Program-made: the position numbers and the translations under genes
Assembly (NCBI GenBank): GCA_963848965.1
Contig: CAWKFG010000004.1
Location: 32,001 to 96,000, forward strand
Source: an uncultured bacterium
GTDB taxonomy: Bacteria > Babelota > Babeliae > Babelales > Babelaceae
Direction of reading: 5' to 3'
DNA: 64,000 nt
In this document: positions 30,094-63,241 of the stretch, one piece after another
Numbering within the stretch: position 1 is the first letter of the stretch
How the letters are laid out: the number at the start of each line of letters is the position of its first letter
The notes under the pieces: generated by a model
What the model saw: the letters and a program-made list of their open reading frames with translations, nothing else
Database searches by the model: none
Told to the model about the DNA's origin: nothing

Positions 30094-31929
30094 TCACCTC
30101 AAAGGAGCTTCTTGTTCCTTACAAATAGGCTGTTTCTCAACTTTTTGAGACGTATGATCGTCTTCACCTTGCTGCCTTTGCCAAAGCTGAGCATATACTC
30201 CCTTAGAGCGCAAAAGCTGATTATGGGTTCCTCGTTCCACTATAGTACCTTGATCGAGCACAAGTATTTCATGAGCATGAACTACAGTAGAAAGCCTATG
30301 AGCAATAACAATAGTTGTTCTATGGGTAGAAATTTCTTCAAGATTCTGTTGAATTTCTCGCTCTGTATGAGTATCTAATGATGAAGTTGCTTCATCAAAT
30401 ATATACAAGGCAGGCATCTTAAGTAAAAGACGAGCAATACCAACACGCTGCTTTTCGCCCCCTGAAAGTTTAAGGCCACGTTCACCTACAACAGTACTAT
30501 ATCCTTGTGGTAAAGAGGTAATGAAAGTATCTAAATGAGCCAATTGTGCAGCTTTTTGCACTTCACTTTCTAGTGCTGTAGGATTGCCATAAGCAATATT
30601 GTGATACAGTGTATTATTAAAAAGAACAGTATCTTGAGGTACAACCCCTATAGTTTGATGCAAAGATTTTTGGGTAACAGAGCGAATATCAACTCCATTA
30701 AGCACAATAGAGCCAGAGTCAACATCGTAAAAGCGAAAGAGAAGCCGCGCTATCGTTGACTTTCCTGATCCACTCGGGCCCACAATGGCAACAGTTTCAC
30801 CTGCAGGTACGGCAAAAGACACTCCCTTTAAAATACCACGCTCTGGAGTATAGCTAAAATATACATTATCAAACACAACCTCTGCTTTATCTATCTTTAA
30901 AGAAGAGGCATGAGATACATCTTTTATCTCTGGCTCAAGGTGCATAACCTCTAAAGCTGAACGCATATCCTGAATACCTCTACGTACTTGATGCATAATG
31001 TAACTAAAATGATTAAGTGGCATAGCAAATTGCAAAAAGTATCCATTAATAAGCACAAAGTCCCCAACATTCATAGTACCATTATATACTGCTCTACCTG
31101 CCATCCAGGTAAGAGCAGTGAGTCCTAATCCAATTACTACTCCTTGGCCCATTTGCACAGTACTATCAGTTAAAAATCTTTTTGTTCCTGCATCTTCTTG
31201 TTCTTTTAAAAGCTCATTTATTTGAGTATGTTCATACTGCTCATTATTAAAATATTTTATCGTTTCAATGTTGAGCAAGCTGTCAACAATACGAGCACTT
31301 GATTGTATACGCTTTTCATTATGATGTTCCTGCGCTTTTATAGATCGGCTCATTGCCACAAAGCTAAAGAAAAGATACCCTATAGTAATAAAAAGCAAAG
31401 CAATACCATAGCATAAGCCATATAGGTAAGAAAGAAGAACTATTACAAGAGTCATTTCAAGAGCTGTAGGAATCAAAAACAACGTAAGCCCCCAAAAGAT
31501 ATTATCATAGCCATGTTGTGCCCGATCAATAGCATTAGTTAATGCGCCTGTTCTTCGCTCAGTATGAAACCGTTGTGATAATGAAAGTACATGATCAAAA
31601 AATGATAAGCTTAACAAACGCATACCGCGCTCAAGGACACGGTATATAATATGTATACGCAACTGTGTTACTATTTGACCCAAAGTCCAAAAAAGCCCAT
31701 AGCTTGCAAGCACAAGTGACAAAAAAGCAGGAGAAAGTGACTGCGTTTGGGAAAACGTATTAACAATAGTTTTAAAAATAACAGGGATACTCAGATTTAT
31801 AGCTATCATAACACCTGTTAAGAGAAATGATGTTATAATGCGTAATCGTATACGCCATTGAGGTACCCATACGTATGGCAACAGTTGAAAAATAATTTTT
31901 GCTGAGGAATAATTTTTACCAGGTGACAT
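30094..31929 (-). CDS. ABC transporter ATP-binding/permease, ATM1/HMT1-like (ABCB) half transporter
   Basis: FHTERRTGAL, DSLLNIETIKYFNNE, GPSGSGKST, VVPQDTVLFN, LSGGEKQR, DEATSSLD. Confidence 0.88.
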   Translation of the reverse strand: MSPGKNYSSAKIIFQLLPYVWVPQWRIRLRIITSFLLTGVMIAINLSIPVIFKTIVNTFSQTQSLSPAFLSLVLASYGLFWTLGQIVTQLRIHIIYRVLERGMRLLSLSFFDHVLSLSQRFHTERRTGALTNAIDRAQHGYDNIFWGLTLFLIPTALEMTLVIVLLSYLYGLCYGIALLFITIGYLFFSFVAMSRSIKAQEHHNEKRIQSSARIVDSLLNIETIKYFNNEQYEHTQINELLKEQEDAGTKRFLTDSTVQMGQGVVIGLGLTALTWMAGRAVYNGTMNVGDFVLINGYFLQFAMPLNHFSYIMHQVRRGIQDMRSALEVMHLEPEIKDVSHASSLKIDKAEVVFDNVYFSYTPERGILKGVSFAVPAGETVAIVGPSGSGKSTIARLLFRFYDVDSGSIVLNGVDIRSVTQKSLHQTIGVVPQDTVLFNNTLYHNIAYGNPTALESEVQKAAQLAHLDTFITSLPQGYSTVVGERGLKLSGGEKQRVGIARLLLKMPALYIFDEATSSLDTHTEREIQQNLEEISTHRTTIVIAHRLSTVVHAHEILVLDQGTIVERGTHNQLLRSKGVYAQLWQRQQGEDDHTSQKVEKQPICKEQEAPLR

Positions 31930-48567: not shown

Positions 48568-49475
48568 ACATTCCCTCCTTTGCTCTTTTTAGCTTTTTTA
48601 GTCCAAGAAACATCCCAATAATGTACAGCAAATGATTCAGCCTTAATCCATTGTTTTACTTGCTTATAACTCTTTATATCTTTCTGAAAGTGTGCTATAG
48701 GATAAAAGAATGTATTAGGAAATAACACGCAGCGCTTGCTTTGTCCTTGTCTTTTTAGATAGTGCATAATCATATTAGTAAAATGGATAGGACCTGTATA
48801 AGTTACAGTAGCATTCATACTAACTTCATTCTTAGGCTTCCTTTTCATATTTTCTATGCAATACTTTAAAATAGGATGGCCTGCGGCTGCACCAATAAGA
48901 GCATTATTCACACGAAGTTCCCGTCTAAAGACAATACCCGCATAAAAATCAAGACCATGGTGAAGCAGATCAAACGGACGTATACACTCAAAGTCAGTAT
49001 CGGCATAGAGCCCTCCAAATCTGTAAAGAATCTCATAGCGCGCAATATCGGCCTTTTCCCCATAGTTTGATGCTGCATTATAAAGCTCCTTATTGCGTAA
49101 CCCAAAAGCTTCAACATCTTTATCGGTCCAAAGTATATATTTCCAATCTGGATGCAATCGACGCCATGATGCCTGCAATTGCTTGTATCGGTCAGGTAAG
49201 GGAGAGCCGAGCCATATTTGATGAATTATTTTAGGGATTGTCGGCTTATGCGAATAGGCAAAATTGCGTAAAAAGTTTGTGTCATAAGTTTCTTTGGCAA
49301 GTCTCCAATGAATATTATTCAGTAAAAAGGGTGTATAAATCTTAAACCGAGATGAAGGCACCATGCTTTGATTAAAATCTATTCTAAGATGATGAGGCAA
49401 CATATATGCTTTACTCATTATAGCTATATTGAGCACTAGACCAAGTAGAGCATATGTATAGTAAGTACGGATCAT
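48564..49475 (-). CDS. Glycosyltransferase family 32 (DXD, OCH1-like)
   Basis: IPKIIHQIWLG, SW...HPDW.Y.LWTD, ADIARYEILY.FGGLYADTD, TGP, HYW..SW. Confidence 0.9.
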   Translation of the reverse strand: MIRTYYTYALLGLVLNIAIMSKAYMLPHHLRIDFNQSMVPSSRFKIYTPFLLNNIHWRLAKETYDTNFLRNFAYSHKPTIPKIIHQIWLGSPLPDRYKQLQASWRRLHPDWKYILWTDKDVEAFGLRNKELYNAASNYGEKADIARYEILYRFGGLYADTDFECIRPFDLLHHGLDFYAGIVFRRELRVNNALIGAAAGHPILKYCIENMKRKPKNEVSMNATVTYTGPIHFTNMIMHYLKRQGQSKRCVLFPNTFFYPIAHFQKDIKSYKQVKQWIKAESFAVHYWDVSWTKKAKKSKGGNV

Positions 49476-49494
49476 TGTATTCCTTATATGTATA

Positions 49495-50322
49495 TTACCA
49501 GTGTAAATTTGCTTCGTAGCCTAAACGTACAAGTAATTCTCCGGCTACAGCTTTAAAGGCTCTTTTATGCATTGGTTTAAAATGGCTTTTCCAGGAACCT
49601 ATTTGTCCTTCTCTAAAGGTCTTACTATTTGTATCGAACACCTTATGAGCAACTTCTTGCGCTTTTTGGTCATCAAAAGGCACAGATAAGTGACGTGCTA
49701 TATTTCTAATCTCTCTGAGTTGCTTTTGAGCATCTCCCCCTCCTTGAGGACCAATTAAATCTTCAAATTTAGTAGTATACATAAATGGGCACTTTTGCCA
49801 TGGCAGGTAAAGCTTCGTGTATACATCATAGAGATTTTTAATATGCAGAGAATTTACATAGTTCGGATAGCTATCAAATTGAGCATGCTCATTAATAAGC
49901 TTCATAAGTAATTCGTCTATAGAAAGCTTGCTAGTAGGATGATTTTTTGAATACCAGTAAGCTCGTGAGACGATAACATCTCTTGGGTCTCTAATAATAA
50001 ATATTCCTTTAAAGTTGTTTCTTTTTAATGCTCCAACATTTTGAGCACTATAAATAGCATGAGTACCTAAAAAGCGATTATCTGGAAGATTCTTTAAGGC
50101 TTTGGGTTTTAGAACGGTAAGGGGTTGGCCTACAAACTTAAGAGATTTTTGCGTGATAAGTTCTACACATGTACTTAAAACATGAGTTCCTGATTTGGGT
50201 AAAGCCGTAATAAATGCCTTGTGTTGATCAGCGGCTTGTGTAAGAAATGTCAGTGAGCTGGCTAACAGCACCCCCTTAATAGATCTCAATACCTGTAGTA
50301 ATATCATACGTATAGTCCTCAT
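49495..50322 (-). CDS. Sulfotransferase domain protein (paralog of 47767)
   Basis: PKSGTHVL, RDPRDVIVS, FREGQIGSWK, LGYE...W. Confidence 0.88.
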   Translation of the reverse strand: MRTIRMILLQVLRSIKGVLLASSLTFLTQAADQHKAFITALPKSGTHVLSTCVELITQKSLKFVGQPLTVLKPKALKNLPDNRFLGTHAIYSAQNVGALKRNNFKGIFIIRDPRDVIVSRAYWYSKNHPTSKLSIDELLMKLINEHAQFDSYPNYVNSLHIKNLYDVYTKLYLPWQKCPFMYTTKFEDLIGPQGGGDAQKQLREIRNIARHLSVPFDDQKAQEVAHKVFDTNSKTFREGQIGSWKSHFKPMHKRAFKAVAGELLVRLGYEANLHW

Positions 50323-50596: not shown

Positions 50597-50904
50597 AATA
50601 ACGGATGGGGCAAATTTGTTTTTATGCTTGGCTATAAATTGGCAGAGAGAGGCAAACAGCTTATAAAGATAGACAAATGGTTTCCTTCATCAAAGATGTG
50701 TTCTTCATGCAGTAGTATAAAAGAACGTCTAGAACTATCAGAAAGATGGTATGATTGTCAGCATTGTGGGTACTCTCAAGAGAGAGATATCAATGCTGCT
50801 AGAAATATTAGAACCGTGGGGATCACGGGGATAGCTTGATAAATATCCTGAGGCTGCTCAGGAGTTCCCAAGAAGCCCCCACCTCTTAGGTGGAGGTAGT
50901 TCAC
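50597..50904 (+). mobile_element. tnpB: IS200/IS605-family remnant: C-terminal TnpB fragment plus right end (omega-RNA region)
   Basis: In-frame NGWGKFVFMLGYK...WFPSSKMCSSC...WYDCQHCG...ERDINAARNI (stop at 50839), then hairpin right end GAAGCCCCCACCTCTTAGGTGGAGGTAGTTCAC ending in TCAC. Confidence 0.85.
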
Positions 50905-50977
50905 CTTCATATGTATCGCTTAGTATAACAAGAAGGCAAATAAAGAAAGCAACAGAGTATTTATCACTTATAGTACC

Positions 50978-51082
50978 TTATCTATTAAACCAAGCTCCGG
51001 GCCTATTAGTCTCATAATATGCTACCCAAGGGCCACCTAGGGTCAACTTACTAGCATTGCCAAGCATACGGATAGTTTTCAT
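50978..51082 (-). CDS. Lasso peptide precursor A1: MKTIRMLGNASKLTL|GGPWVAYYETNRPGAWFNR
   Basis: Manual translation; AAGGAG RBS; G-x-A-S-x-L-T leader with Thr at -2; core Gly1, Glu9. Confidence 0.85.
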   Translation of the reverse strand: MKTIRMLGNASKLTLGGPWVAYYETNRPGAWFNR

Positions 51083-51115
51083 CGTGTATCTCCTTTTAAG
51101 GTATGTTAAATTTTC

Positions 51116-51144
51116 CTTGAGGAATACCACATGCATTCCTCAAG
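51116..51144. other. Stem-loop between precursor genes
   Basis: CTTGAGGAAT-N9-ATTCCTCAAG. Confidence 0.6.
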
Positions 51145-51304
51145 AATTAATAAACCTATTTTTCACGGGAAAGGATAAGCCATCCCAATCTTACTTCACC
51201 AGCAACCTTCGCCTACATCAAGGGGCTGTCTTCCTTCGTCTATCGGCAGCAGGCGAGCATTGCACCTGACATAACCATCTTTAGAAATCTAGTTAGTTTA
51301 CCTT

Positions 51305-51436
51305 CTAATGCCCACACCAATGAGGCCTTAGTCCAAGCTCATTTCTGTTACCATTGCAATACCCTAGAGTAAGTAATGATGCTTTCCCAATCTCAACGGC
51401 TCTACTTTCTTTTTTGTTTAGTTTTATCTTATGCAT
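51305..51436 (-). CDS. Lasso peptide precursor A2: MHKIKLNKKESRAVEIGKASLLTL|GYCNGNRNELGLRPHWCGH
   Basis: Manual translation; GAAAGGA RBS; Thr at -2; Gly1, Glu9; Cys3 and Cys17. Confidence 0.85.
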   Translation of the reverse strand: MHKIKLNKKESRAVEIGKASLLTLGYCNGNRNELGLRPHWCGH

Positions 51437-51454
51437 TGCAGTTCCTTTCATTAA

Positions 51455-52383
51455 GAGCCTATCTCTAAAATGGAAAAAAGGTTGAAAATATAATAAAATC
51501 TCCTTCTAAAGAATCGCGATCAACGATCAAGAAGGAGATTTACACATGTGTCATACAAAAAATTGTTATGAAGTATGCATAAACAAGAAGTTTCTTATAA
51601 CTCCAAATTTATGGAAAGATATAGAAAAAATAATACCAAAAATAAGCGAAAAATCAAAGCGGGGAAGACCCTCAATGGATATGAAAAGAGCAATAAATGG
51701 TATCTATTATCTGTTAAGGACAGGTATACAATGGAATGCATTGCCTAGATGCTTTGGATCGTACTCTGCTGTCCATAAACTGTTTCAAAAATTAAGGTCT
51801 GTCGAGTTCTTTAAATATTTATGGTATGCTGAACTTGACCAATATGATAAAATTCACGGACTTAGTCTAGAAACTCAAGCTGCTGATTGTGTTTATATTA
51901 AAGCGCCCTTGGGTTCAGAGAAAACAGGCAAGAGCCCAGTAGATAGGAGAAAATTAGGAACAAAACGAAGCATATTAACTGATAAAAACGGTATAGTTAT
52001 CGGTTGTGCGTTAGGTAGCGCTAATCAGCACGATTCTCAGCTATTTTTGGATACCTTATTATCCATTCCTAAGCATATATCCATGCCTTATAGCAAAATT
52101 ATAAGTTTAGATGCAGCTTATGATTCAGCGCAAATAAGAGCCTACTTGCTGCATTACAGCTATGTACCTAAAATAATGAAAAATAAAAGAAAAGCTAAAA
52201 ATAAAGTTTATGGTGTACCAGAAGGTTATCAACGCTGGTTCATTGAACCTACGCATTCATGGCTCAATCGGTTTAGGCGCTTGTTTGTTCGTTATGAAAA
52301 ATACGCTTTAAACTATATGGCTATGGTTTATTTTGCCGTAGCTATCATTATTTTTAACAAATTATGAATTTACGGATAGGCTC
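51455..52383 (+). mobile_element. IS5-family insertion sequence (IS1031-like), 929 bp
   Basis: Terminal IRs GAGCCTATCTCTAAAAT / ...AATTTACGGATAGGCTC; TAA direct repeats at 51452-51454 and 52384-52386; single transposase ORF. Confidence 0.88.
51546..52367 (+). CDS. IS5-family DDE transposase
   Basis: RGRP, GIYYLLRTGIQWNALP, DRRKLGTKRSILTD..G, AN.HDS, LDAAYDS, RWFIE..HSWLNRFRRL..RYEK. Confidence 0.92.
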   Translation: MCHTKNCYEVCINKKFLITPNLWKDIEKIIPKISEKSKRGRPSMDMKRAINGIYYLLRTGIQWNALPRCFGSYSAVHKLFQKLRSVEFFKYLWYAELDQYDKIHGLSLETQAADCVYIKAPLGSEKTGKSPVDRRKLGTKRSILTDKNGIVIGCALGSANQHDSQLFLDTLLSIPKHISMPYSKIISLDAAYDSAQIRAYLLHYSYVPKIMKNKRKAKNKVYGVPEGYQRWFIEPTHSWLNRFRRLFVRYEKYALNYMAMVYFAVAIIIFNKL

Positions 52384-52495
52384 TAAAGTATAATTAAACT
52401 TTATCATAAGAGTTTCTCTAATTAGCATTAAAGAATACATCAAACAATAGACTAAGTATTTTTAAAAGTAGTGGTTAAAGCTTTTGTAAGTAATC

Positions 52496-52657
52496 TCACA
52501 TCCATTTATTTACTTTTACCGGTAGCTCTAAACCATTAAAGCCTCTACCCATAGTAAGATTTACCGCTGAACCAATCTGCATAACAGAAGTTTGTAGGAA
52601 AAAAATCTTCTTATTATTAGCCTTATCTTTAATTACAGTACTATTTGTATAATGCAT
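52496..52657 (-). CDS. Lasso peptide precursor A3: MHYTNSTVIKDKANNKKIFFLQTSVMQIGSAVNLTM|GRGFNGLELPVKVNKWM
   Basis: Manual translation; GAAGGA RBS; IGSAVNLT leader end; Gly1, Glu8; paralog of A5. Confidence 0.85.
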   Translation of the reverse strand: MHYTNSTVIKDKANNKKIFFLQTSVMQIGSAVNLTMGRGFNGLELPVKVNKWM

Positions 52658-53128
52658 TTTTTCCTTCGATAGTAATTATAAATTGTGATCCTAAAAATAT
52701 ACGCAATAAAAATACTAACAAGATAAACCTTATTGTCAAATAGGCATCAAAATAGCGATTGTTACACTCTCTTAAAAAAGAACTAAAACAACAAAAAGCA
52801 TATGCTCTATTTAGAATTTTTTTATTATTATAATTTATTACTGCAACTAATAACTTTGGTATAATTTTCGATAGTAAACTATACATTTATCCTTACTCTA
52901 TCTCTAAAATAGCTTTATAAAAGCTGTTATAGTTGCGATAACAGCAAAAAGTCCTGTTATCATGAAGCTTAATATACTGAACACTGTTAATAATTATGTA
53001 TATGCCACTAGCATCTTACGTAGATATTTGACTTTTTAGAGCTATAAATCATACTGGAAAAAGTAATTTCTATACTCTGCAAAAATATTATAATGACAGG
53101 CTTCATTACTAAATCGAAAGGTATAATT

Positions 53129-53293
53129 GTGATTACTCCTCAAAATTACAAGCAAAAAAGTGCTCGCGTAAATACAGTGGCTATCAAAGAATTGGGTAGT
53201 GCTTGTTTTCTTACTCTTGGTTGGCAAACTAAGAATGCTAAAGAATACATGCGATCATCTTCTTATTTGAAAAACTCCAAGAGTAAGCTTTGA
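53129..53293 (+). CDS. Lasso peptide precursor A4: ...VAIKELGSACFLTL|GWQTKNAKEYMRSSSYLKNSKSKL (tail possibly chimeric)
   Basis: Within track ORF 53093..53293; GTG 53129 after GAAAGG; Thr at -2; Gly1, Glu9. Confidence 0.7.
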   Translation: MITPQNYKQKSARVNTVAIKELGSACFLTLGWQTKNAKEYMRSSSYLKNSKSKL

Positions 53294-53358
53294 GACAAGA
53301 CCTATTTAACAACTATTTTTTTGCTAGTTTTCTTAATAGCATTAAAAATTTTTTGCAT
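53259..53358 (-). pseudogene. Frameshifted copy of lasso precursor A6
   Basis: MQKIFNAIKKTSKKIVV[fs]IGLVSKLTL|GVF[fs]SNKK aligns to 60198..60335 with two small deletions; truncated. Confidence 0.75.
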
Positions 53359-53465
53359 ACTATATTCCTTTAAATTAAATAGCACTGTAGAGATAAACTT
53401 TATGAATTTTAAACAAATAATATTTGTCGAATGTCAAGCGAGTAGTTTTTTATGAAATACGTTTA

Positions 53466-53588
53466 AGTAAAATGCAGCAATTCTTACTATTATACTATGT
53501 AAATTAATTATATATCTGAGATGAAATATTCTTAAAGCATAATACACTTAACTTGACATTTAAAAAACTTAAAGCATACTAGAAAAAA
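53466..53588 (+). repeat. 123-bp block duplicated at 60517..60639 (promoter region)
   Basis: One mismatch by eye; contains TTGACA-16 bp-CATACT and two copies of CTTAAAGCATA. Confidence 0.9.
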
Positions 53589-53716
53589 GAAAACTTGACA
53601 TCTTGTAAGATCACACAAAAAACAGCATTTTTTAATCTTGATGATAAGCTATATGCTGAAGCAGAATAGCATATACGCATAAGAAGAGCTGTAATTTTTA
53701 ATTGAAAAGTATCTGT

Positions 53717-53883
53717 ATGTTTATAAGACAAAATATTCAATAGAAAGATTGTATCAAAGTAAATACCGTTAAGATAACCAGAGCAATAGTTAAGGAGCCC
53801 GGCAATAGCTCAGCCCTTACGCTTGGAATACTAAAAATGCTAAAGAATATATGAGAACTTCGTGTATTTGGGTGAAAAGCTAA
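53717..53883 (+). pseudogene. Decayed lasso precursor, paralog of A4
   Basis: MFIRQNIQ*KDCIKVNTVKITRAIVKEPGNSSALTLG[fs]NTKNAKEYMRTSCIWVKS*. Confidence 0.7.
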
Positions 53884-53990
53884 AAATCAATAGAGGATTT
53901 ATAGACATCTTAATCATAAAAACTATCTAGTCAGTGTAGTTTAATCAAGCAGTTATATTAATCAAGGAGGGAATAAATTTAGGGGAAACT

Positions 53991-56900
53991 ATGAAAAATG
54001 TATGTTCTTTTGTTTTAACCGTATGTCTTTTGTCTTTTCAACTGAGTAAGCCAATGGAAAAGGAGACAGCCAGAGAACAAGATATACAAGAAGACAAAGA
54101 AAACATTATATATTTAGAAAGCATTGAAGGAGAACTTGTTCCTTTATCGAGCTCATATCTTCCTCCTGCTTTTGCTTTCACAGTATCTGCTTATCCAGCC
54201 TCTCTAGTTCCTATAAAACAACCATTAGATACTTTAACTTTAGCATGTGATATCCTGCAAGCAAAAAATAAAGATATCTCTCGCCTTATCAATGATTATA
54301 TTGCAGGAGGTTACCTAGAAAGATTCAAACCTGCTCCTTTAAAGAAACCAATTAGAGATGTATTACAAAAGGTTCGTACACTCATAGAAACTCTTCAATT
54401 TCTAAAAATAAGCCAAGAATGCTTGGCCCGTACCTTAAAATACTGCCTACATAATGAACATGTACAGAAAGCTATAACGAGTAAGCTCTTTGTTTATTTA
54501 GAAAGCAAAGAAGGTACCTTGGTTTCTTTTCCGCTTCAATTTCTTCCTCCAGATTTCACTCGAAGATTACCTCAGATAAACCTCGATTTTATAGACAATG
54601 ATATCGTCATCGATTGTAATGACTACCCTACTCGCACTTTAGAGCTTGCACGCGAAATTTTGATACACTACATAGGACTTATCTCTACTACTTACAAAGA
54701 AGCTCATCAACAAGCACTATTAAACAAAGTTGAAGACTATTTGAAGACAGACTCTTCTAATGGAATCATACAAAAAGCGCAAAATCTTTTGAAATTAGTA
54801 AGGTTTCTTAGAGTAAGCCAAGACTGCTTTAACGCTCTTTTACAAAAATGTGCAGCAATAATTAAATGCGATCAAAAAGAACTTTTTTATTCTTGCGATG
54901 CTTTTCATAAAGAGATAGCAGAAGAGAATCTCAAGTCGTGTATACGACCATTAGAAGAGCAAAGCAGCTGGCATCCTTTATCCCTTCACTCTCCTCAAAA
55001 ACAGAGTCTCTCCTTTTCAGTAAAGAAGCTTGAAGATCTACTTTATATAGCTCCTCAGAAAAGAAGAGAACTTGCATTTACTATAGCACTAAAGTATGAA
55101 GATAGAAATATTCATTTGCCTGTTCAGCACCTTATTGATCACAAATCATGGCAAGCTTTAGATGTACTCTGTGGACCTAAATCAAATCCTGAATCATATT
55201 TTGCACATGCTATTGACCGTACATCAACAGAAATAGGAAAAGCGCTCTTTTATTCAAAGCTTCTACAGCCTCTTGATGCTATCCAAGAGCTCAAGAAAAG
55301 GCAATCCATTGTTCAAGAGCTTGCTGGCAACAAAGAGATCTTTGATAAGCTTGATGGGTTATTCAAAGATTTCTTTAGTGAGCTTAAAGGCAAAAATGAA
55401 CAAATGGAAGCAAAAAAATATGAGAATAATATATTAGCCTTCTTTACAGAAAACGATCCCTTTAAAGAATTACTCAAGCTTGATATCACCAATCTCAAGG
55501 GAGCCGCAAAATGGATAAACTCTAACGAGCTCATGGTAACGCTAAAAAGAGGTAAAGATATTATTCCAGATATCATTATCAATATAACAACAAAACAGAT
55601 AAAAAATATTATTCCACAACAGATTAAACAGCTCTTTGACGCGTTTATGCCTGCACTTGCTTCTGAGGCAGGCTCCTGGGCAGCTTCTCAAGCTTGGAAC
55701 TCATTATCTACAAAATTTTTTCCTGACCCTGCTCATCTATCACCACGCTTACTCCAATGGGCGGCTTCTGCTGTAAGCAAAGTACCAAAGGCACATATAC
55801 AGCAAACCATGATGCTTCTTGTTGCAAAGTTTATCTGCTCATTAACATGCTCTAGCGACGAAGATGATTTTGTTAAAGGAATGGTAGAGATGAACTTCTG
55901 TCTTCAGACAAGGCTTATATTACTTGCAAAATATATTACTCTCATGAAAAATGTCTATAATATAGTAAGCACATCACCTAAACTTAAAGAGTATCTACCG
56001 TTTCTAGAAGCCCTCGATCTTGGGCAGGAGCATCATCAAGATATTCTCGCTCATCTCTGGTATTGGTGTAATGAGCTTACTCATCCTGCATCGTTTGAAC
56101 AGTTTATCAATAAGCTCTGTACTGCTACTTTTGATGAAAAAGATGACTCTTGGGCAAAATATCATTTCGGTCGAATAATAGCAACGTATTGCCTTGTTGA
56201 AGTTCATAAAGAACGGCTTTTTGAGGCAGTTATGGCACTATCTGAGCTTGATTCATATCTTTCAGTTGCACGATTGTATAATGAATCGCAGGATAAACCA
56301 AATAAGTATAGCTTTGTCAATTATGATACGTCAGAAACACCCATTATTGATCTTAAAAACTTTTGGAATCCTTGTGTTGGATATAATGCAGTAGCTAATA
56401 CCCTAACTATGGGTACTGATAACCATCCAAAAGACATTATCATTACAGGCCCAAACACGGGTGGCAAATCAACACTCATGAGAGCTCTTATCTTCACCAT
56501 TCTTATGGCACAATCAGTAGGAATAGCTCCTGCTCAACCAGGTTCACATATTACGCTATTTTCAAATATACGAGCGTATCTTAACATCACTGATGATGCT
56601 TCACAAGATGCGTCCTTATTCAAAGCAAGTGCTCAACGAGCCCGAGAGCTTTTAGATGCTGCATTAAAAACAAGAGGACTTTCTCTTACACTCTTTGATG
56701 AAATATATAATGGAACTGATCCTAAGTTAGGTGAATCATTAGCATATGCTACTCTTAAATTTCTTAACGATAGCGCTCGCTTTTCTCACAACATGTGTAT
56801 AACTACAACTCACTTTCCCTGTGTTCAAAAGCTACGCAGAGAGCATACAGGAACTGCATTAGGTACTAATTTTGGATATTTTAGAGTATTTGATATAGAA

Positions 56901-57497
56901 GATCCTAACACCCTCTTTAAAATTAAACCTGGTATTTGTACTAAATCAAATGCTTTTAAAGTAGCAGAGGATAGCTTCAAACTGAGTGAAGATAATAACT
57001 TATACTCAAAGATTCTTGAAGATGCAAAAGAATATTATGGACAGAATTTTGAAGAACAAAAGGGCATACTTGCAGATCCTCATTACTTGGATTTATTGAG
57101 AAGGTCTCCTACTGCATTACTTGAAATGATCCAATTAATAAAAAGCAGCCCTAATCGATGTAAAGAATACCAAGATCTCCTTTTAAGAATGGCGTACCTT
57201 GATAGTTTTATAGCACTTATTGAGCATAAGAAAAATATCTTAGCAGAGAATAATATCACTCTTGCTACATTACTTAACCTTACTAATTCTCAAGGTAGAA
57301 CAGTTCTTCATAACGGAGCACTTGATCTTATTGAAGATGAAGCTCTTATAACAAAACTCATAAACTATGGAGCAAATCCACAAGTGACAGATAACTATGG
57401 AAGAAAACCATTACACTATACTCAAAAGAATACCCTTATAGAAGAGCTGCTCAATCGCTATGAAAGACCGGCCCGCTCAAAGTCAATAAAATTATAA
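53991..57497 (+). CDS. Signal-peptide protein: two N-terminal Skp1/BTB-like repeats + MutS-family ATPase domain + C-terminal ankyrin repeats
   Basis: SKP|MEK; repeated YLES.EG.LV..; MutS domain V motifs IITGPNTGGKST, SLFK, LFDEIYNGTD, TTHF; GRTVLH/GRKPLHY ankyrin. Confidence 0.75.
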   Translation: MKNVCSFVLTVCLLSFQLSKPMEKETAREQDIQEDKENIIYLESIEGELVPLSSSYLPPAFAFTVSAYPASLVPIKQPLDTLTLACDILQAKNKDISRLINDYIAGGYLERFKPAPLKKPIRDVLQKVRTLIETLQFLKISQECLARTLKYCLHNEHVQKAITSKLFVYLESKEGTLVSFPLQFLPPDFTRRLPQINLDFIDNDIVIDCNDYPTRTLELAREILIHYIGLISTTYKEAHQQALLNKVEDYLKTDSSNGIIQKAQNLLKLVRFLRVSQDCFNALLQKCAAIIKCDQKELFYSCDAFHKEIAEENLKSCIRPLEEQSSWHPLSLHSPQKQSLSFSVKKLEDLLYIAPQKRRELAFTIALKYEDRNIHLPVQHLIDHKSWQALDVLCGPKSNPESYFAHAIDRTSTEIGKALFYSKLLQPLDAIQELKKRQSIVQELAGNKEIFDKLDGLFKDFFSELKGKNEQMEAKKYENNILAFFTENDPFKELLKLDITNLKGAAKWINSNELMVTLKRGKDIIPDIIINITTKQIKNIIPQQIKQLFDAFMPALASEAGSWAASQAWNSLSTKFFPDPAHLSPRLLQWAASAVSKVPKAHIQQTMMLLVAKFICSLTCSSDEDDFVKGMVEMNFCLQTRLILLAKYITLMKNVYNIVSTSPKLKEYLPFLEALDLGQEHHQDILAHLWYWCNELTHPASFEQFINKLCTATFDEKDDSWAKYHFGRIIATYCLVEVHKERLFEAVMALSELDSYLSVARLYNESQDKPNKYSFVNYDTSETPIIDLKNFWNPCVGYNAVANTLTMGTDNHPKDIIITGPNTGGKSTLMRALIFTILMAQSVGIAPAQPGSHITLFSNIRAYLNITDDASQDASLFKASAQRARELLDAALKTRGLSLTLFDEIYNGTDPKLGESLAYATLKFLNDSARFSHNMCITTTHFPCVQKLRREHTGTALGTNFGYFRVFDIEDPNTLFKIKPGICTKSNAFKVAEDSFKLSEDNNLYSKILEDAKEYYGQNFEEQKGILADPHYLDLLRRSPTALLEMIQLIKSSPNRCKEYQDLLLRMAYLDSFIALIEHKKNILAENNITLATLLNLTNSQGRTVLHNGALDLIEDEALITKLINYGANPQVTDNYGRKPLHYTQKNTLIEELLNRYERPARSKSIKL

Positions 57498-57530
57498 CTC
57501 GATAAGAAAACAGTACGAAAGGATACTTGT

Positions 57531-58880
57531 ATGAATCATCTGTTAAAGAAGAGAAGCAAACAAGCGTTATTTTTTGTGAGCCTCTCTTTTACCTCTTTAT
57601 CATTACTGGGTATGCAAAAAGCGCCTTCACCACATGATAGAGCTAGCAATATAGAAGAAGGATCTAAAAGCAACCGAAGGAGAGCTCTCCTTTTAGGATT
57701 AAAACAGTCAAGTGTATCATCAAGTGATGGCCAAACCATTATTCTTGAGCCCTATTTACTTTCGCCGGAAGCCCTAGAGTATATTACCGACAACCGAGAG
57801 CAATTTGATGGTGAATTAAGTACTAACGTATGGAAACTTATTTTTTGGCTCTACCGTACTAGTAACGATATTGATAGCAGTTCTCCTGTTACTTTTAATG
57901 ATGACCCCTTCATTGAATACAAGGTTAAAAATCAAGATGTATTAAAGCTGATAGGGAGGCTACCACTTCTTTACCTCAAAGATTCAGTTTTAGAGACATT
58001 CATAAAAGCTTATGTTGCTTTTAGTAAGGGAACCATAGATGCCAAAGCTCTCTTACATTATCATGATACTCTTTATACTAGTGAGCCCAGCTCTCGACAA
58101 AGAGATCTTTATCAAAAGCTGTGCCTAACCTTGCTTGATAAGTGTTACTATTTACGCTATAAAAAGCATCTTCCTTTTGCTCAAGAGCTTTTAGGAACTG
58201 TATCAATTCAAGAATTATTAGAGCATGGGAGAATTACGTTTCCTCAAGCATCGTTTCATCAACTTAGAAGTACTCTCCACAATGAGGAAGGCAGCTCATT
58301 TTTACCAGAAAACCCAACACTCAAGCTTCGAGATAGTTCCTTGTCAAGTCTTAATGGATGGCAAACTATTTTGAACAATATACAAGCAGATAGTATCTAT
58401 GCAATTGATTTAAGTAATAACTGCTTACAAACGCTTGACCCTCTTTCTGAGCTTACAAACTTTAAAGCGCTTACCGTACTTAGGTTAGATCATAATAAAT
58501 TAAAAACTCTCCCCTTAGAATTACTTAAAGATTGTACCGCTCTTATGGTACTTGATCTTTCGCATAACCCATTAAATGAATTTTCTCCAGAAGACCTTGC
58601 TGTACTTATAGCTCCATGTTCACATCTTCAAGAGCTCTCTATTGCTCATACAGATATGAAGGGAAAGCTTACTGCAGAGCACTTTGCGCGTAACCCTTCT
58701 TTAAAAAAAATAGATTACAAGAATTGTTCACAGTTGTGTGTTTCAGAATCTGTAGATAAACTAAATGCTATGCGTGAGGAATTTACTTTAGATAACAGAT
58801 TTGTCGTTATAGGCGGCTTTTTAGCTTTTATAGTAATAGCTATTCTTGTAGGAAAACATATTATGCATCGTTCTGCATAA
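57531..58880 (+). CDS. Signal-peptide leucine-rich-repeat protein with C-terminal TM helix
   Basis: LLG|MQK; IDLSNNCL, LRLDHNKL, LDLSHNPL, LSIAHT; C-terminal FVVIGGFLAFIVIAILVG. Confidence 0.82.
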   Translation: MNHLLKKRSKQALFFVSLSFTSLSLLGMQKAPSPHDRASNIEEGSKSNRRRALLLGLKQSSVSSSDGQTIILEPYLLSPEALEYITDNREQFDGELSTNVWKLIFWLYRTSNDIDSSSPVTFNDDPFIEYKVKNQDVLKLIGRLPLLYLKDSVLETFIKAYVAFSKGTIDAKALLHYHDTLYTSEPSSRQRDLYQKLCLTLLDKCYYLRYKKHLPFAQELLGTVSIQELLEHGRITFPQASFHQLRSTLHNEEGSSFLPENPTLKLRDSSLSSLNGWQTILNNIQADSIYAIDLSNNCLQTLDPLSELTNFKALTVLRLDHNKLKTLPLELLKDCTALMVLDLSHNPLNEFSPEDLAVLIAPCSHLQELSIAHTDMKGKLTAEHFARNPSLKKIDYKNCSQLCVSESVDKLNAMREEFTLDNRFVVIGGFLAFIVIAILVGKHIMHRSA

Positions 58881-59049
58881 GTGATATATACGTAAAGGAC
58901 CCCAAGTGTAAATAAGCACTTGTATATGAATTTAAGATTAAAGCTTAGTTACTATACCTTACATCTTTCTCTTATACATATGGCAATTGCTTATATCTAC
59001 AAGCAACAAAATGCCGTTATCTTAACTTATTAATAGAAAGGAATAAAAC

Positions 59050-59156
59050 ATACAGCGTACTATTAAAAAGCTCGGTGCCGCCTCTGGTTTAAACCCACGG
59101 TACTGCCATCAAAGCGTTTTGAGGGCGGCCTGTGAGCTGGGCTTACTTACGAATAG
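59050..59156 (+). pseudogene. Decayed lasso precursor
   Basis: After GAAAGGA: (ATA)QRTIKKLGAASGL[fs]TH|GTAIKAF[fs]EGGL*AGLTYE*. Confidence 0.55.
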
Positions 59157-59210
59157 TAATTATAAGATTAAATCCTGGTATTACTATAATAAATTAAACG
59201 AAAGGTCACT

Positions 59211-59735
59211 ATGAAGTTTATTTTATTCTCATTCTTTACAGTTGCTTTCCTTATGTCTTCGGTTCAGGCAATGGAGCCTGCAGATAACCAAGGCAGAAAA
59301 ACGCAAGACCAAGCTATGACAACAAAAGATTTGCTAGAGCGAGGATTCCAACACCAAAGCCAAAGTAGCTTAGGAATTGGATTACTTGGTGCTGGGACAC
59401 TTTTATTTCTCTATGGCATAGCAAATGGTTCAATGGGGGCTGGTTTATTGAGTCTCTGTGCAGCTGCTGGCGGCTTACTTGCACTGCCTACACATCCTCT
59501 TACTGAAGAAGAAAAGAGAAAGCTTGAGGAAGCTAGAAGTATGTGTAAACCTGAATATAACCGGGGATATAATGAGGGATACTCACAAGGATATTACCAA
59601 GGGTATAATAGTGGACATAGTCAGAGTCAAAATTCTGGTACCGCACAAGGATATTCTCAAGGCTATAATCACGGGTACTCCCAAGGGCAAAATTCCTCTC
59701 CAGGTGCTGGGTCTCTCTTTAAAACTAATAAATAA
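59211..59735 (+). CDS. Signal-peptide membrane protein with GYxx tetrapeptide repeats
   Basis: VQA|MEP; two Gly-rich TM helices; YNRGYNEGYSQGYYQGYNSG...QGYSQGYNHGYSQG. Confidence 0.7.
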   Translation: MKFILFSFFTVAFLMSSVQAMEPADNQGRKTQDQAMTTKDLLERGFQHQSQSSLGIGLLGAGTLLFLYGIANGSMGAGLLSLCAAAGGLLALPTHPLTEEEKRKLEEARSMCKPEYNRGYNEGYSQGYYQGYNSGHSQSQNSGTAQGYSQGYNHGYSQGQNSSPGAGSLFKTNK

Positions 59736-59798
59736 ACTGTTTCTGCAGAAAAACTTTTCTTAAACAGTACTCGGTAATCTCTGTAAGAGAGCATAATA

Positions 59799-59824
59799 AA
59801 ACCCCAGCTTTATCGGCTGGGGTT
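59799..59824. terminator. Terminator between convergent gene 59211 and precursor A5
   Basis: AACCCCAGC-TTTATCG-GCTGGGGTT. Confidence 0.7.
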
Positions 59825-59844
59825 ATAAACTGTTTGGGTATAGT

Positions 59845-59994
59845 TTATTTTTTAATTGGCCACTTATTACCTTTAACAGGTAATTCTAAACCATTTCCTT
59901 TAATACCCATAGTAAGAGTCACTGCTGAGCCAACTGAAACAACTGCGCTCTGTAGTTTTGAAGCTATTTTATTATGTGTTTTTTTATGTAACAT
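59845..59994 (-). CDS. Lasso peptide precursor A5: MLHKKTHNKIASKLQSAVVSVGSAVTLTM|GIKGNGLELPVKGNKWPIKK
   Basis: Manual translation; GAAAGGA RBS; Thr at -2; Gly1, Glu8; divergent from lasso B/C. Confidence 0.88.
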   Translation of the reverse strand: MLHKKTHNKIASKLQSAVVSVGSAVTLTMGIKGNGLELPVKGNKWPIKK

Positions 59995-60041
59995 GAGTAT
60001 CCTTTCTCATAAAATAATTAAAAAATGTCTTAACAAAAAGT

Positions 60042-60192
60042 TTATCTTTCTGAACGGTTTGTCATCCAACCTGGTCTTATAAGCTCAGATCGCTTTGAAG
60101 TAATGGCCTACGCGGTAGCTATGTATAATAGCCTATTTTGCAGACTAAATGTTTTTTCCTAGCTACTTTATTTAAATTACAAATTTTTTCAT
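60042..60192 (-). pseudogene. Decayed lasso precursor related to A6
   Basis: MKK[fs]...VCKIG...[stops/fs]AITSKRSELIRPGWMTNRSER*, compare A6 core SNKKSELFRPTW. Confidence 0.65.
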
Positions 60193-60197
60193 AGTCA

Positions 60198-60335
60198 TTA
60201 TTCTACCCATGTTGGTCTAAAGAGCTCAGATTTTTTATTTGAGAAAACTCCGCGAGTAAGCTTTGATGCAAGACCTATCTCACGAAGAGCTATTTTTTCG
60301 CTAGTTTTCTTAATAGTATTAAAAGCTTTTTGCAT
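60198..60335 (-). CDS. Lasso peptide precursor A6: MQKAFNTIKKTSEKIALREIGLASKLTR|GVFSNKKSELFRPTWVE
   Basis: Manual translation; IGLASKLT leader end; Gly1, Glu9; immediately divergent from lasso B. Confidence 0.88.
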   Translation of the reverse strand: MQKAFNTIKKTSEKIALREIGLASKLTRGVFSNKKSELFRPTWVE

Positions 60336-60516
60336 GATATATTTCTCTAAATTAGATAAATTAAAAACAATTTACAATCAAATAATAACAAGCTTAAAAA
60401 ATAAATCAAGTGGTGCTGTAAAGATAAATTTATGGATATTAAATGACTAATAATTTTAAATAAATAGTATTTGTCGGATGTATAGCGACTGTCTTTTTAT
60501 GTAAACAAAGAGTTCT

Positions 60517-60639
60517 AGTAAAATGCAGCAGTTCTTACTATTATACTATGTAAATTAATTATATATCTGAGATGAAATATTCTTAAAGCATAATACACTT
60601 AACTTGACATTTAAAAAACTTAAAGCATACTAGAAAAAA
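60517..60639 (+). promoter_or_regulatory. Promoter block upstream of lasso B/C (second copy of 53466..53588)
   Basis: TTGACA 60604-60609, CATACT 60626-60631; direct repeat CTTAAAGCATA. Confidence 0.6.
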
Positions 60640-60679
60640 AGAAACTTAAATAAATTGTAAGATTACACAGGACAATGTT

Positions 60680-61429
60680 ATGTTTTTTCGCTTACAATCC
60701 CCTATTTATGCAACACACTGTGATAGCGGAATTATTATTTTAGATTTAAAGCAAGATAAATACTTTAGCCTTACTGATGAGGCTGTTCACTTTCTTACTG
60801 AAATATTAAAAAGAGAATTTGTTCTTAAAGACGCTCATTATATCCCTTGTGATGAAACAGTGCCTGATGAAGAACATATATTTGATTCTTGGATACACTA
60901 TTTTTTAGAAGAAGGATTTATTGAGCCTAGCAATCAGAAAGATGTCTCTAAGCCATTAAGGACAGCCTTAGTATCAGGCGGTCTTGCAGATTACCAATGG
61001 GATACTAAAGATAAACTTTCCTCTTTTTCTCAGTCACCTAAGCTTTTAGTAATGCAATTATTTTTCCTCGTAATGCGCGTAGATTTTATTTTAAAACGCA
61101 AGGGAATACAAGGAATCTTAGATAAAATAAATGTATATAAACGCAAGCATAAGGTATACAAAGAACCAACTCAAAGTGATATAGAAGCGCTTTCTGCTGC
61201 ACTTGATGTCGCTTGCTCTCTGTACCCAAAAAAAATGTATTGCCTTGCATGGGCATCATCATTTGTCTTAATAGCTCTTAAAAAAGGGCTAAAGTGTAAT
61301 CTTGTTATTGGCGTACAATCACCTCCCTTTTATGCTCACGCATGGGCTCAAGTAGGAGAAACGGTTATTAATGATGCAACCATAGTAAAAGAACGTCTTT
61401 CAATCCTCTTAAAGGAACCATTTAGTTAA
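60680..61429 (+). CDS. Lasso peptide biosynthesis B protein (fused RRE + transglutaminase-like leader peptidase)
   Basis: N-terminal IILDLKQDKYFSL (RRE/PqqD-like); C-terminal YCLAWAS...LVIGVQSPPFYAHAWAQ....IND with Cys-His-Asp triad. Confidence 0.9.
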   Translation: MFFRLQSPIYATHCDSGIIILDLKQDKYFSLTDEAVHFLTEILKREFVLKDAHYIPCDETVPDEEHIFDSWIHYFLEEGFIEPSNQKDVSKPLRTALVSGGLADYQWDTKDKLSSFSQSPKLLVMQLFFLVMRVDFILKRKGIQGILDKINVYKRKHKVYKEPTQSDIEALSAALDVACSLYPKKMYCLAWASSFVLIALKKGLKCNLVIGVQSPPFYAHAWAQVGETVINDATIVKERLSILLKEPFS

Positions 61430-61438
61430 GGAATAGCT

Positions 61439-63241
61439 ATGCCTCTTATTGCCGGTGCTCTTTTAAAGCATCCTTCTACGCACCTTACTGATAAACTTAT
61501 ACATTACACAAAAAAAATACTTACAGAAGAATCGTATACTATTAATCAGCAGCCCTATGCACTCATTATAGGTGGAAAAAGAGCAGAAGAATCATCTTTA
61601 GAACAGGTTCAAGTACTTCCTCATAATGAGGGAATTATGGTTGGCAGACTCTTTGATAAAGTTACTTACAAGCCCTGCTATGCGCAAGGAGCAAGCTCTA
61701 TCGTGCATACAAAAGGAAAGTCTTTGAGCGACCGCTATTGGGGACGGTATATTCTTGCTCTTTTAGATACCTCTCATAGATCTATTACTCTTTTTAGAGA
61801 TCCACAAGGCCTTTCATCGCTCTTTATTATTGAGATACCCGAAGGAATTTTTTTTGCGTCTGAGATTTCAGTTCTGTATGATATCCTTGAGATAAAGCCA
61901 GAACTTGATTGGACCTATTTAACTTCATATGTTTCTGGTGCCCACAATATTACTTATAGAACACCTTTTCATGGCATTACAGAGCTCTTTCCAGGATATG
62001 GAGTAACCCTTTCACCTAAGGGAATCGAAACTCCATTTCTTTTTTGGGATCCTACTGAGCTTTCGTCTCAATGTAAAACTGAACAAGAATATGAAGATAA
62101 GCTCATTGCAACATTTTCTTCTTGTACACAAGCTTGGACACAAGGAGTTTCAGGTATAGGAGTTGAATTTTCCGGAGGTATTGATTCTTCATCAGTGCTT
62201 ATGATGCTCAAAAAAGTGGCATTACCAGAGCAGCGTATTGTTGGATTTAATTTTTTCCATCCTGCCGTTGCTTCATCTGATGAGCGGGAACATGCAAAGA
62301 AAGTTGCTACTGCTTGCCAAGTAGATGTTGATTATATAAATTTACAAGATTATGCATATTTAAACTTTCAAACGGTTGAAAGATTTGATAAGCCCTCCTC
62401 TTTCTTGCTCGATCTGGGATGGAATAAAGAAATGGCGCGGAGAATACAAAGCTATGGAGATCTTGAAATCATGTGTGGCCAAGGAGGCGACCATCTTTTT
62501 ATGGCACCACCTCCAGTAGAATCAATTGCCGATTATCTAATTTTACAAGGCTTTAGGGGCATCACTCCTAAAATTAAAGATATAAGCGCTTACTATCGTA
62601 TGCCATTGCTTAGTGTTTTATCAAAAAATCTTTCTTCATTTGTTCACTATAAGCGAGGAAACCTTAAGCATATAGAATTGCTCTATGAACCAACCAATTG
62701 GATGAATCAGTCATTTAAAGAAAAACTTAATAAAGACATATTCCAAGTTCCTTTTTGGCATAAGCTTAAGAATCTTCCTCCTGCTAAAGTGCAGCATATC
62801 TTTGCTCTGTATCAAGCAACTCTCTATATAGATAGAGGGCACAGAATAGCACATAAGCCAGTTATTAACCCACTTCTCTCTCAACCTCTTGTTGAGCTCG
62901 CTCTTGCAGTACCTACCTATCAACTATATGGAAATGGTTATGATAGAGTACAGTTTAGAAAAGCAATGTACCAATTTACAAAACACGATTACATATGGCG
63001 TAAAACTAAAGGCGAAACGAGCGGCATACTTATGATTGCCTTTAACCGTCAAATTAAAGAAATCACTGAATATCTCTTAGAAGGTAAGTTTGCTCAAGAA
63101 AAATTGGTAGATAAAAATCTTCTTTACAATCATATCCAAGATATAAGGCATGGAAAAAACGATAACATATGGGCTATTATTAACCTTCTTGCTGCAGAGC
63201 TTTGGCTTCATTCATGGGATACTACAACGCGTAAAGAGTAA
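61439..63241 (+). CDS. Lasso peptide cyclase C (asparagine-synthetase-like isopeptide bond synthetase)
   Basis: YWGRY, RDPQG, EFSGGIDSS, SSDER, GQGGDHLF, NPLLSQPLVELAL, WRKTKG; lacks the N-terminal Cys of a glutaminase-active AsnB. Confidence 0.9.
   Translation: MPLIAGALLKHPSTHLTDKLIHYTKKILTEESYTINQQPYALIIGGKRAEESSLEQVQVLPHNEGIMVGRLFDKVTYKPCYAQGASSIVHTKGKSLSDRYWGRYILALLDTSHRSITLFRDPQGLSSLFIIEIPEGIFFASEISVLYDILEIKPELDWTYLTSYVSGAHNITYRTPFHGITELFPGYGVTLSPKGIETPFLFWDPTELSSQCKTEQEYEDKLIATFSSCTQAWTQGVSGIGVEFSGGIDSSSVLMMLKKVALPEQRIVGFNFFHPAVASSDEREHAKKVATACQVDVDYINLQDYAYLNFQTVERFDKPSSFLLDLGWNKEMARRIQSYGDLEIMCGQGGDHLFMAPPPVESIADYLILQGFRGITPKIKDISAYYRMPLLSVLSKNLSSFVHYKRGNLKHIELLYEPTNWMNQSFKEKLNKDIFQVPFWHKLKNLPPAKVQHIFALYQATLYIDRGHRIAHKPVINPLLSQPLVELALAVPTYQLYGNGYDRVQFRKAMYQFTKHDYIWRKTKGETSGILMIAFNRQIKEITEYLLEGKFAQEKLVDKNLLYNHIQDIRHGKNDNIWAIINLLAAELWLHSWDTTTRKE

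Follow-up and report, generated by a model that had tools for sequence, protein, structure and literature searches.

The question raised by this locus is whether a bacterium with a reduced genome carries a working lasso-peptide system, and how far such a system extends beyond the few genes that are seen at first. The window analysed here is a stretch of 64,000 nucleotides from an uncultured bacterium (G000:C4:32001-96000, where G000 is the genome under study and C4 the contig), and toward its end lies an island in which a preliminary description had recognised one fused B gene, one cyclase gene C and six small precursor genes (A1 to A6). From the sequence evidence, we are fairly confident that these genes make up a class II lasso-peptide system of working type in a bacterium of the Dependentiae (Babeliales-like), with the six small genes forming part of a precursor family of 16 members.

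The lasso-type assignment of the two enzymes, made earlier from the sequence alone, is upheld by profile searches, in which PF13471 and PF00733 both matched, B passed an NCBIfam lasso model and C had lasso models as its best NCBIfam matches. The B2 leader peptidase of a lasso system has a transglutaminase-like fold with a Cys-His-Asp triad. B scores 66 bits against the NCBI lasso B2 model NF033537, where the cut-off is 33, and 62 bits against PF13471, and its Cys188, His220 and Asp232 are invariant in 19 of 19 homologues. The spacing of this triad (32 from Cys to His, 12 from His to Asp) is presumably equal to that of McjB. Residues 3-55 give weak matches to the lasso PqqD model NF033530 (E 0.011) and to TfuB1 (6jx3_B, E 0.041), and B is therefore taken to be a fused B1-B2 protein. 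C matches PF00733 at 73.6 bits (cut-off 21), and its SGGxDS motif, the PP-loop at residues 245-250, is invariant in all six homologues. The protein begins with MPLIAG and is without the N-terminal Cys nucleophile of true asparagine synthetases. Its best NCBIfam matches are lasso cyclase models, NF033535 foremost at 90 bits, all of them below cut-off. A large protein search with C returned 33 homologues at E <= 1e-40, none of them named better than 'asparagine synthase', and a search of the ESM Atlas returned generic Asn-synthase clusters only, commonest in Pseudomonadota.

Lasso precursors follow a rule that places Thr at the penultimate position of the leader (PMC7549694). Their cores begin with Gly (or with Cys, Ser or Ala) and carry Asp or Glu at position 7-9. 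All six small frames proposed as precursors are open with their cores as first read, five on the minus strand and one on the plus strand. The latter had been given a start at 53129; its full frame is 53093-53293, and 53129 is an alternative in-frame GTG start behind AAAGG. The motif claimed for the set, G-x-A-x-x-L-T-x before Gly1 with Glu at core position 8 or 9, was borne out by alignment, where G, A, L, T, Gly1 and Glu are invariant across the six. When written as G.A..LT.G.{6,7}E, it finds 10 matches among the 45,880 small stop-to-stop frames of the genome, compared with none in the reversed frames and none in 20 residue shuffles. The invariant residues draw on several synonymous codons, which shows conservation of the peptide and not of a DNA repeat. 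Moreover, a Shine-Dalgarno-like (SD-like) site precedes the ATG in most precursor frames. In A1, translation more probably begins at the ATG found at residue 19 of the ATG-started open reading frame (ORF), or residue 20 of the stop-to-stop frame; this ATG follows AAAGGAG and would leave a leader of 15 amino acids. A profile built solely from the precursors of other genomes and run against the same 45,880 frames placed four of the six window frames (A1, A2, A4 and A3) in its top 12. None of the six passes a curated lasso precursor family of NCBIfam, the best E values being 0.093 and 0.13 and both short of the cut-off, in agreement with the earlier remark that the cores were not recognised. The better of the two is A1 against NF033471, the acinetodin/klebsidin/microcin J25 model (12.8 bits against a cut-off of 23), to which the other five gave no match. 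A2 is the only window core with two cysteines (Cys3 and Cys17), and a ring-to-tail disulfide, a trait of class III lasso peptides, would be possible there.

Another line of evidence comes from structure prediction. The predicted complex of B with A1, a precursor remote from the enzyme genes, reached an ipSAE of 0.69 compared with 0.00 for the best control, a mark that was attained by 116 of 157 solved complexes and by 2 of 215 mismatched pairs. Contacts agreed between model runs to at least 72%, and the partner pLDDT was at least 50. In the model, B residues 19-36 meet precursor residues 20-29, so that the end of the leader lies on this part of B, and B residues 187-189 and 217-221 meet precursor residues 31-35, with T32-L33-G34 beside Cys188 and His220. 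The model thus places the predicted cleavage site at the active site of B. Similar complexes of a leader with a RiPP recognition element (RRE), RiPP standing for a peptide that is made by the ribosome and modified after translation, have already been solved, and the model therefore shows likeness and not binding.

The earlier count of six precursors and one B/C pair, the latter conceived as a promiscuous pair that might process all of the peptides, proved too low on both sides. A profile of the motif-bearing frames, together with a second profile drawn only from other genomes' precursors, raised the precursor family of G000 to 16 intact members, with at least three decayed ones besides, at about seven sites on two contigs. 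Outside the window, contig C4 has two shortly after the window end (99.1-99.8 kb), two at 417-421 kb and a tandem of four at 795.5-796.3 kb, and contig C1 has one each at 432.5 and 448.5 kb. Thr at -2, Gly1 and Glu8 or Glu9 occur in 16 of 16, with Glu8 as the ring acceptor in nine and Glu9 in seven, and the cores are 15-25 amino acids long. The leader ends in a conserved [EQ]-[LI]-G-x-A/V-S-x-L-T-x and the core is hypervariable: the 120 pairwise comparisons give a mean identity of 48% over leader positions -10 to -1 and of 9% over core positions 2-7. Such a conserved leader with a variable core is the usual signature of a RiPP library. On the same contig, at a distance of about 700 kb, a second locus combines an ABC ATPase and a probable permease with a second B (52% identical to that of the window) and a second C (46%); another cyclase, C' (44%), and the four tandem precursors that follow it converge on these genes. 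In total, G000 has two B and three C genes, all with intact frames.

The system would be expected to work as follows. B would bind the end of the leader as an added beta-strand and cut between residue -1 and Gly1, after which C would adenylate the side chain of Glu8 or Glu9 and join it to the amine of Gly1. The product would be a ring of eight or nine residues threaded by a tail of 7-17 residues, and an ABC exporter, for which the window holds one candidate (Table 1), would release it. The monoisotopic masses predicted for the lasso forms are 2222.045 (A1), 2163.959 (A2), 1926.030 (A3), 2815.444 (A4), 2157.279 (A5) and 2005.042 (A6). The two B and three C enzymes would together serve the precursor family, and the ABC-2 pairs that adjoin the second locus and one orphan precursor would provide an export context.

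Table 1. Lasso-related genes, remnants, duplicated segments and mobile-element genes of the window (window coordinates)
Feature	Coordinates	Strand	Remarks
Candidate exporter D, ABC membrane + ATPase	30094..31926	-	best G000 match (50% identity) to a relative's in-cluster D
TnpB-type fragment, 71 aa	50624..50839	+	PF07282, 72 bits; at edge of precursor field
Precursor A1	50978..51136	-	core GGPWVAYYETNRPGAWFNR, Glu9; relatives-only profile E 4e-6
Precursor A2	51305..51451	-	core GYCNGNRNELGLRPHWCGH, Glu9; relatives-only profile E 4e-5
IS4/IS5-type DDE transposase gene	51546..52367	+	PF13340 63 bits, PF01609 56 bits; between A2 and A3
Precursor A3	52496..52657	-	core GRGFNGLELPVKVNKWM, Glu8; A5 paralogue, 87% nucleotide identity between genes
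Precursor A4	53093..53293	+	core GWQTKNAKEYMRSSSYLKNSKSKL, Glu9; relatives-only profile E 0.008
Decayed copy of A6 gene	53240..53381	-	about 85% nucleotide identity to 60244-60358; stops, frame breaks
Duplicated intergenic segment, copy 1	53461..53596		96% identical to 60512-60647
Frameshifted A4-like precursor remnant	53744..53883	+	leader and core in different frames; 82%
MutS-like paralogue 1, 1168 aa	53991..57497	+	hydrophobic N-terminus, MutS domains III + V, weak C-terminal ankyrin match
Precursor A5	59845..59994	-	core GIKGNGLELPVKGNKWPIKK, Glu8
Core-only remnant resembling A6 core	60042..60107	-	sequence likeness
Precursor A6	60198..60335	-	core GVFSNKKSELFRPTWVE, Glu9; divergent from B
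Duplicated intergenic segment, copy 2	60512..60647		between A6 and B
B, fused B1/RRE-like N-terminal domain + B2 cysteine protease	60680..61429	+	intact; PF13471, NF033537
C, Asn-synthetase-like macrolactam cyclase	61439..63241	+	intact; PF00733
MutS-like paralogue 2, 1193 aa	63335..64000	+	start only, runs off window; 94 bp after C; 44% identical to paralogue 1

The island also records how the family may have arisen. Three decayed precursor copies lie in the window, and a larger duplication of about 400 bp pairs 53230-53640 with 60200-60690 at 83% identity; its 136-nucleotide core, 96% identical, has only these two copies in the genome. The decayed A6 copy falls within this duplication. The duplication sets the same promoter-like hexamers ahead of B and ahead of the MutS-like gene at 53991. 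Promoter and terminator scans gave counts close to those of shuffled sequence (promoter-like sites numbered 20 where 16.0 were expected and 7 where 5.3 were expected) and were used only for spotting the duplicated segment; a terminator-like hairpin lies at 59824-59800, downstream of A5. Because of the three dead copies, the 400-bp segmental duplication and the insertion sequence (IS) element, the precursor family apparently grows through local duplication and decay.

The preliminary description had implied that such a system was unique to this bacterium, and this did not hold. Fused B occurs in 16 of the 261 Dependentiae genomes searched (about 6%) and in 11 of the 189 high-quality genomes of the phylum, G000 included in both counts, and lasso clusters of other obligate amoeba symbionts have been published (PMC8831229, PMC3423634). 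Within the same family, cyclase C was found in 2 of 24 other genomes. Every one of the 16 B-positive genomes has precursor-model matches of the same leader type, nearly all beside B. The usual gene order in the relatives is D, several A, B and C, and their clusters contain a McjD-like half-transporter. In two other Dependentiae, single ORFs hold several leader-core cassettes directly after C: three ORFs of 128, 111 and 148 amino acids with 3, 3 and 4 cassettes at L034:4934-6186 (minus strand), and ORFs with 2 and 3 tandem cassettes at L033:12370-13061 (plus strand). The next leader starts immediately after each core, so release of the C-terminus would need an additional step.

A tree of 20 cyclases, from which the truncated L030 cyclase was omitted, pairs the window C with the C of G146, a genome of another family (support 100/99), and the two second-locus cyclases with each other (100/100). 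Together these four make up a clade of their own; the other 16 cyclases, among them those of the same-family genomes G006 and G009 and of a chlamydia-titled genome, lie outside it. It follows from this tree that the cluster has moved between lineages. The chlamydia-titled case is a record named uncultured Rhabdochlamydiaceae bacterium (L025). Its lasso locus comprises A, B, D and C in full and bears the same leader motif; its B is 42% and its C 34% identical to those of the window, and the GyrA of its genome is 44% identical to that of G000. This locus points to an exchange of the cluster between two protist-symbiont phyla.

As to the host, a Dependentiae (TM6) or Babeliales-type bacterium with a reduced genome, as first proposed, is supported by several kinds of sequence evidence. 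The Dependentiae are a group of bacteria with a life inside protists. Six of the 12 closest C loci come from records titled Babeliales, Dependentiae, TM6 or Babeliaceae, and one of these lineage-titled loci coincides with a stretch of a same-family genome; of the remaining six, one bears the title Rhabdochlamydiaceae and five name no lineage. GyrA is 67-72% identical to that of three genomes of the phylum set, compared with the 44% already given for the chlamydia-titled genome. The assembly is 1.73 Mb in five contigs, with 37% G+C (GC) and 88.7% completeness. It has four matches to the ATP/ADP translocase profile PF03219 in three genes, against none in 14 control genomes, and numerous genes for ankyrin, leucine-rich repeat (LRR), WD40 and MYND proteins.

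Several observations weigh against a working system. The RRE domain of B depends on weak sequence matches and on a model that may echo solved RRE-leader complexes. C scores 90 bits where one curated lasso-cyclase model requires 525 and 86 where another requires 300, a wide shortfall in both, and the relatives-only profile gives A3 an E value of 0.35 and A5 one of 4.4, while A6 is unlisted at E <= 10. The 3' end of A4 overlaps a decayed gene on the opposite strand, and its tail may be accidental. The count of 16 precursor-model matches in G000 as against 1-8 in each of the other B-positive genomes is biased, the model having been built from G000's own sequences. No exporter gene lies beside the window B and C; the candidate D is 28 kb from A5, its nearest precursor, and 29 kb from B, and close homologues of it (45-55% identity) occur in four genomes without B or C (G004, G007, G023 and G038), so the gene is kept only as a candidate. 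The region is also decaying, as the three dead copies, the IS element and the TnpB fragment attest, and some intact precursor frames may therefore be silent relics. Taken to its limit, the last point becomes an explanation of its own, in which only the enzyme-adjacent precursors (A5, A6 and the four at the second locus) are real substrates and the remote ones (A1-A4, the two past the window, those on C1 and those at C4 417-421 kb) are silent leftovers of duplication in the course of decay. In its favour, the decayed copies lie among remote frames, the IS element and TnpB fragment fall within the same 3 kb, GC dips to 29% at 52-54 kb, the tail of A4 enters a dead gene, and in 15 other genomes the precursors are mostly beside B and C. 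Yet all 16 members keep an open frame with Thr -2, Gly1 and Glu8/9 despite near-total divergence of the core, which neutral decay would not spare; SD-like sites are kept in most of them; the B complex model that passed came from the remote A1; and remote copies stand in operon-like positions beside ABC-2 transporter or MutS-like genes. We consider this explanation unlikely, with only a small chance of being right.

Far less probable is the proposal that the small frames encode other small proteins, or are a chance family of ORFs, and that B and C act on something else. The absence of a match to any curated precursor family and the low cyclase scores would fit it, but it would have to account for the lasso residues in 16 of 16 precursors, for their co-occurrence with B in all 16 B-positive genomes, for the absence of the motif from shuffles, and for a model that puts the predicted cleavage site at the active site of B. 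Least probable of all, we judge, is a contaminant or chimeric origin of the island, which the preliminary description had named as a possible objection. The mobile-element genes, the dip in GC and an 88.7%-complete assembly in five contigs might raise the suspicion; the island, however, sits inside an 873-kb contig with typical lineage genes on both sides, its GC of 33-37% is like the 37% of the genome, more members of the family lie on another contig and 700 kb away, and 15 other genomes of the phylum have homologous loci. A search for sequencing runs that match the stretch 50900-60400 listed none, RNA data included. The reading as a lasso system with a large precursor family is thus the one we retain.

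A further feature of the locus is its linkage to MutS-like ATPase genes. Both its position and the duplication shared upstream tie paralogue 1 to the lasso genes. Ten genes of G000 encode MutS domain V: one canonical MutS and nine others, and all nine non-canonical genes have a short hydrophobic, signal-peptide-like N-terminal segment. Of these nine, four are no more than about 700 bp from a precursor or C: the gene at 53991-57497, which follows A4 and a dead copy; the gene that starts at 63335, with two precursors just past its end; and those at C4 417397-420207 and C1 445305-448358. A MutS-like gene is also present in 8 of the 18 relatives' lasso loci examined, and the other 15 B-positive genomes have 36 non-canonical domain V genes, of which 12 are at the lasso locus (13 if one gene beside weak precursor-like matches is included); by simple arithmetic the lasso-locus stretches make up about 1.3% of each genome. 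In a quick tree of 62 non-canonical copies (fast alignment and FastTree; ORFs below 350 amino acids, those without a BLASTP match to the query, a 207-amino-acid fragment and a few genomes were omitted), the 17 lasso-adjacent copies need 7 state changes, whereas 2000 label shuffles gave 15.0 on average and never fewer than 10, although relatedness inflates such tests. Clades that mirror the cyclase tree are G000 with G146, G006 with G109, and G183 with G242. A hydrophobic N-terminal window was found in 54 of the 63 proteins of the MutS-like set, and the canonical MutS is without one. More broadly, the family with domains III and V only is phylum-wide, with nine in G000 against 0-4 non-canonical copies in 30 other genomes.

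It is conceivable that the lasso genes and the signal-peptide-bearing MutS-like ATPases, with domains III and V only, form a functional module, whose peptides and ATPases would be co-delivered into the protist host or a shared intracellular niche as a fast-evolving effector set, with as many as 16 scattered precursor genes, or as many as four cassettes per ORF, acting as the library from which variants come. This reading is allowed by the 4 of 9 and 12 of 36 adjacency, by the clustering in the tree, by the mirroring of the cyclase tree and by the shared 400-bp segment that bears the promoter; we regard it as doubtful on balance, if with a modest chance of being correct.

Some neighbouring genes deserve mention. 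Inside the island, an LRR protein (57531-58880, plus strand) has a hydrophobic N-terminus and a C-terminal membrane segment, and a homologue with 29% identity stands at L039:14688-15536, beside the MutS-like gene of a relative's lasso locus. Between the LRR gene and A5 there is a gene for a 174-amino-acid protein (59211-59735, plus strand) with a hydrophobic N-terminus, a central membrane-like stretch and a tail rich in Q, G, Y and S; tblastn found no second copy in G000 or in the relatives' lasso loci. The precursor field is bordered at 47767-50322 (minus strand) by two PF00685 sulfotransferase genes, one of them with a hydrophobic N-terminus in its product, and a DXD glycosyltransferase gene. 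These were considered as tailoring enzymes and rejected, having paralogues elsewhere (C4 at about 300-317 kb and contig C2) and no counterpart found in the 18 relatives' lasso loci. With regard to export, tandem ABC exporter pairs at G007:C22:9483-12996 and G023:C50:32653-36155 are 45-48% identical to candidate D in genomes without lasso B or C, and may be leftover immunity genes or exporters for another peptide. On contig C1 of G000 (L009:2532-4732), an orphan precursor, remote from every B and C, stands immediately upstream of a gene pair for an ABC ATPase and an ABC-2 permease. The ATPase shares 34.5% identity with its counterpart next to the second-locus B.

Comparison with known systems helps to define what is particular here. 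Like McjABCD of microcin J25, the system has a B, probably a B1-B2 fusion, with a Cys-His-Asp triad, an Asn-synthetase-like C, Thr at -2, Gly1, a Glu ring acceptor and, in the clusters of its relatives, a McjD-like half-transporter. Unlike it, the window has six precursors and not one, with no adjacent D; the precursors stay under the cut-off of the J25-family model, the rings would be closed by Glu8 or Glu9, and the host is a reduced-genome Dependentiae. Another parallel is offered by the prochlorosin-type lanthipeptides, in which one ProcM enzyme serves about 30 scattered precursors with conserved leaders and hypervariable cores. They resemble the present family in having many precursor genes away from the enzyme gene and a conserved leader with a variable core, but they belong to another RiPP class, with another enzyme, and to free-living cyanobacteria. 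Among lasso peptides themselves, clusters with two or three precursors are described for caulosegnins I-III, the caulonodins, the xanthomonins and astexins-2 and -3 (PMC7549694). There, too, a single B/C set is accompanied by several precursors that have the leader in common and differ in the core; their two or three precursors are adjacent, whereas G000 has 16 genes at about seven sites, dead copies, two B and three C, and two of its relatives hold 2-4 cassettes in one ORF.

The closest ecological parallel is Amoebophilus asiaticus, an obligate amoeba symbiont with a putative lasso cluster, Aasi_0899-0902, which the reports describe as flanked by IS elements and up-regulated late in infection, with a role in host interaction proposed by the authors and with homologues in the alphaproteobacterial amoeba symbionts Paracaedibacter and Odyssella (PMC8831229, PMC3423634). 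By this published description, it shares with the present case an obligate intracellular symbiont of amoebae as host, IS elements, and a spread over unrelated symbiont lineages; it differs in being one four-gene cluster, and the portions available mention neither scattered precursors nor a MutS-like partner. Because of these published clusters, lasso genes in intracellular protist symbionts are not in themselves new. Among the papers listed in our literature search there was no report of lasso genes in Dependentiae, although TM6 clusters may already be on record in the supplements of Tietz et al. 2017. One paper that has both subjects touches on them in passing only, papers found under the name TM6 dealt with transmembrane helices, and one preprint detected no biosynthetic gene clusters in its one or two Dependentiae metagenome-assembled genomes. 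A search of the literature on multi-core lasso precursors found no multi-cassette lasso precursors among the papers listed. What looks new, then, is the size and scatter of the precursor family, the recurring association of lasso genes with MutS-like ATPases whose N-termini resemble signal peptides, and the single precursor ORFs with up to four leader-core cassettes in two relatives.

Lasso peptides are valued as stable scaffolds and as antibiotics, and those that have been studied come nearly all from free-living Proteobacteria and Actinobacteria. Here, an apparent obligate protist parasite with a genome of 1.7 Mb devotes genes to two B, three C and 16 precursors, and about 6% of the Dependentiae genomes searched do so on a smaller scale. 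The scattered library would provide 16 natural substrates with which to gauge the tolerance of one B/C pair, and the multi-cassette precursors pose the biochemical question of how the C-terminus of each core is released. Together with the published Amoebophilus case, the system suggests that lasso peptides have a function within protist cells, be it directed at the host, at its organelles or at competing symbionts.

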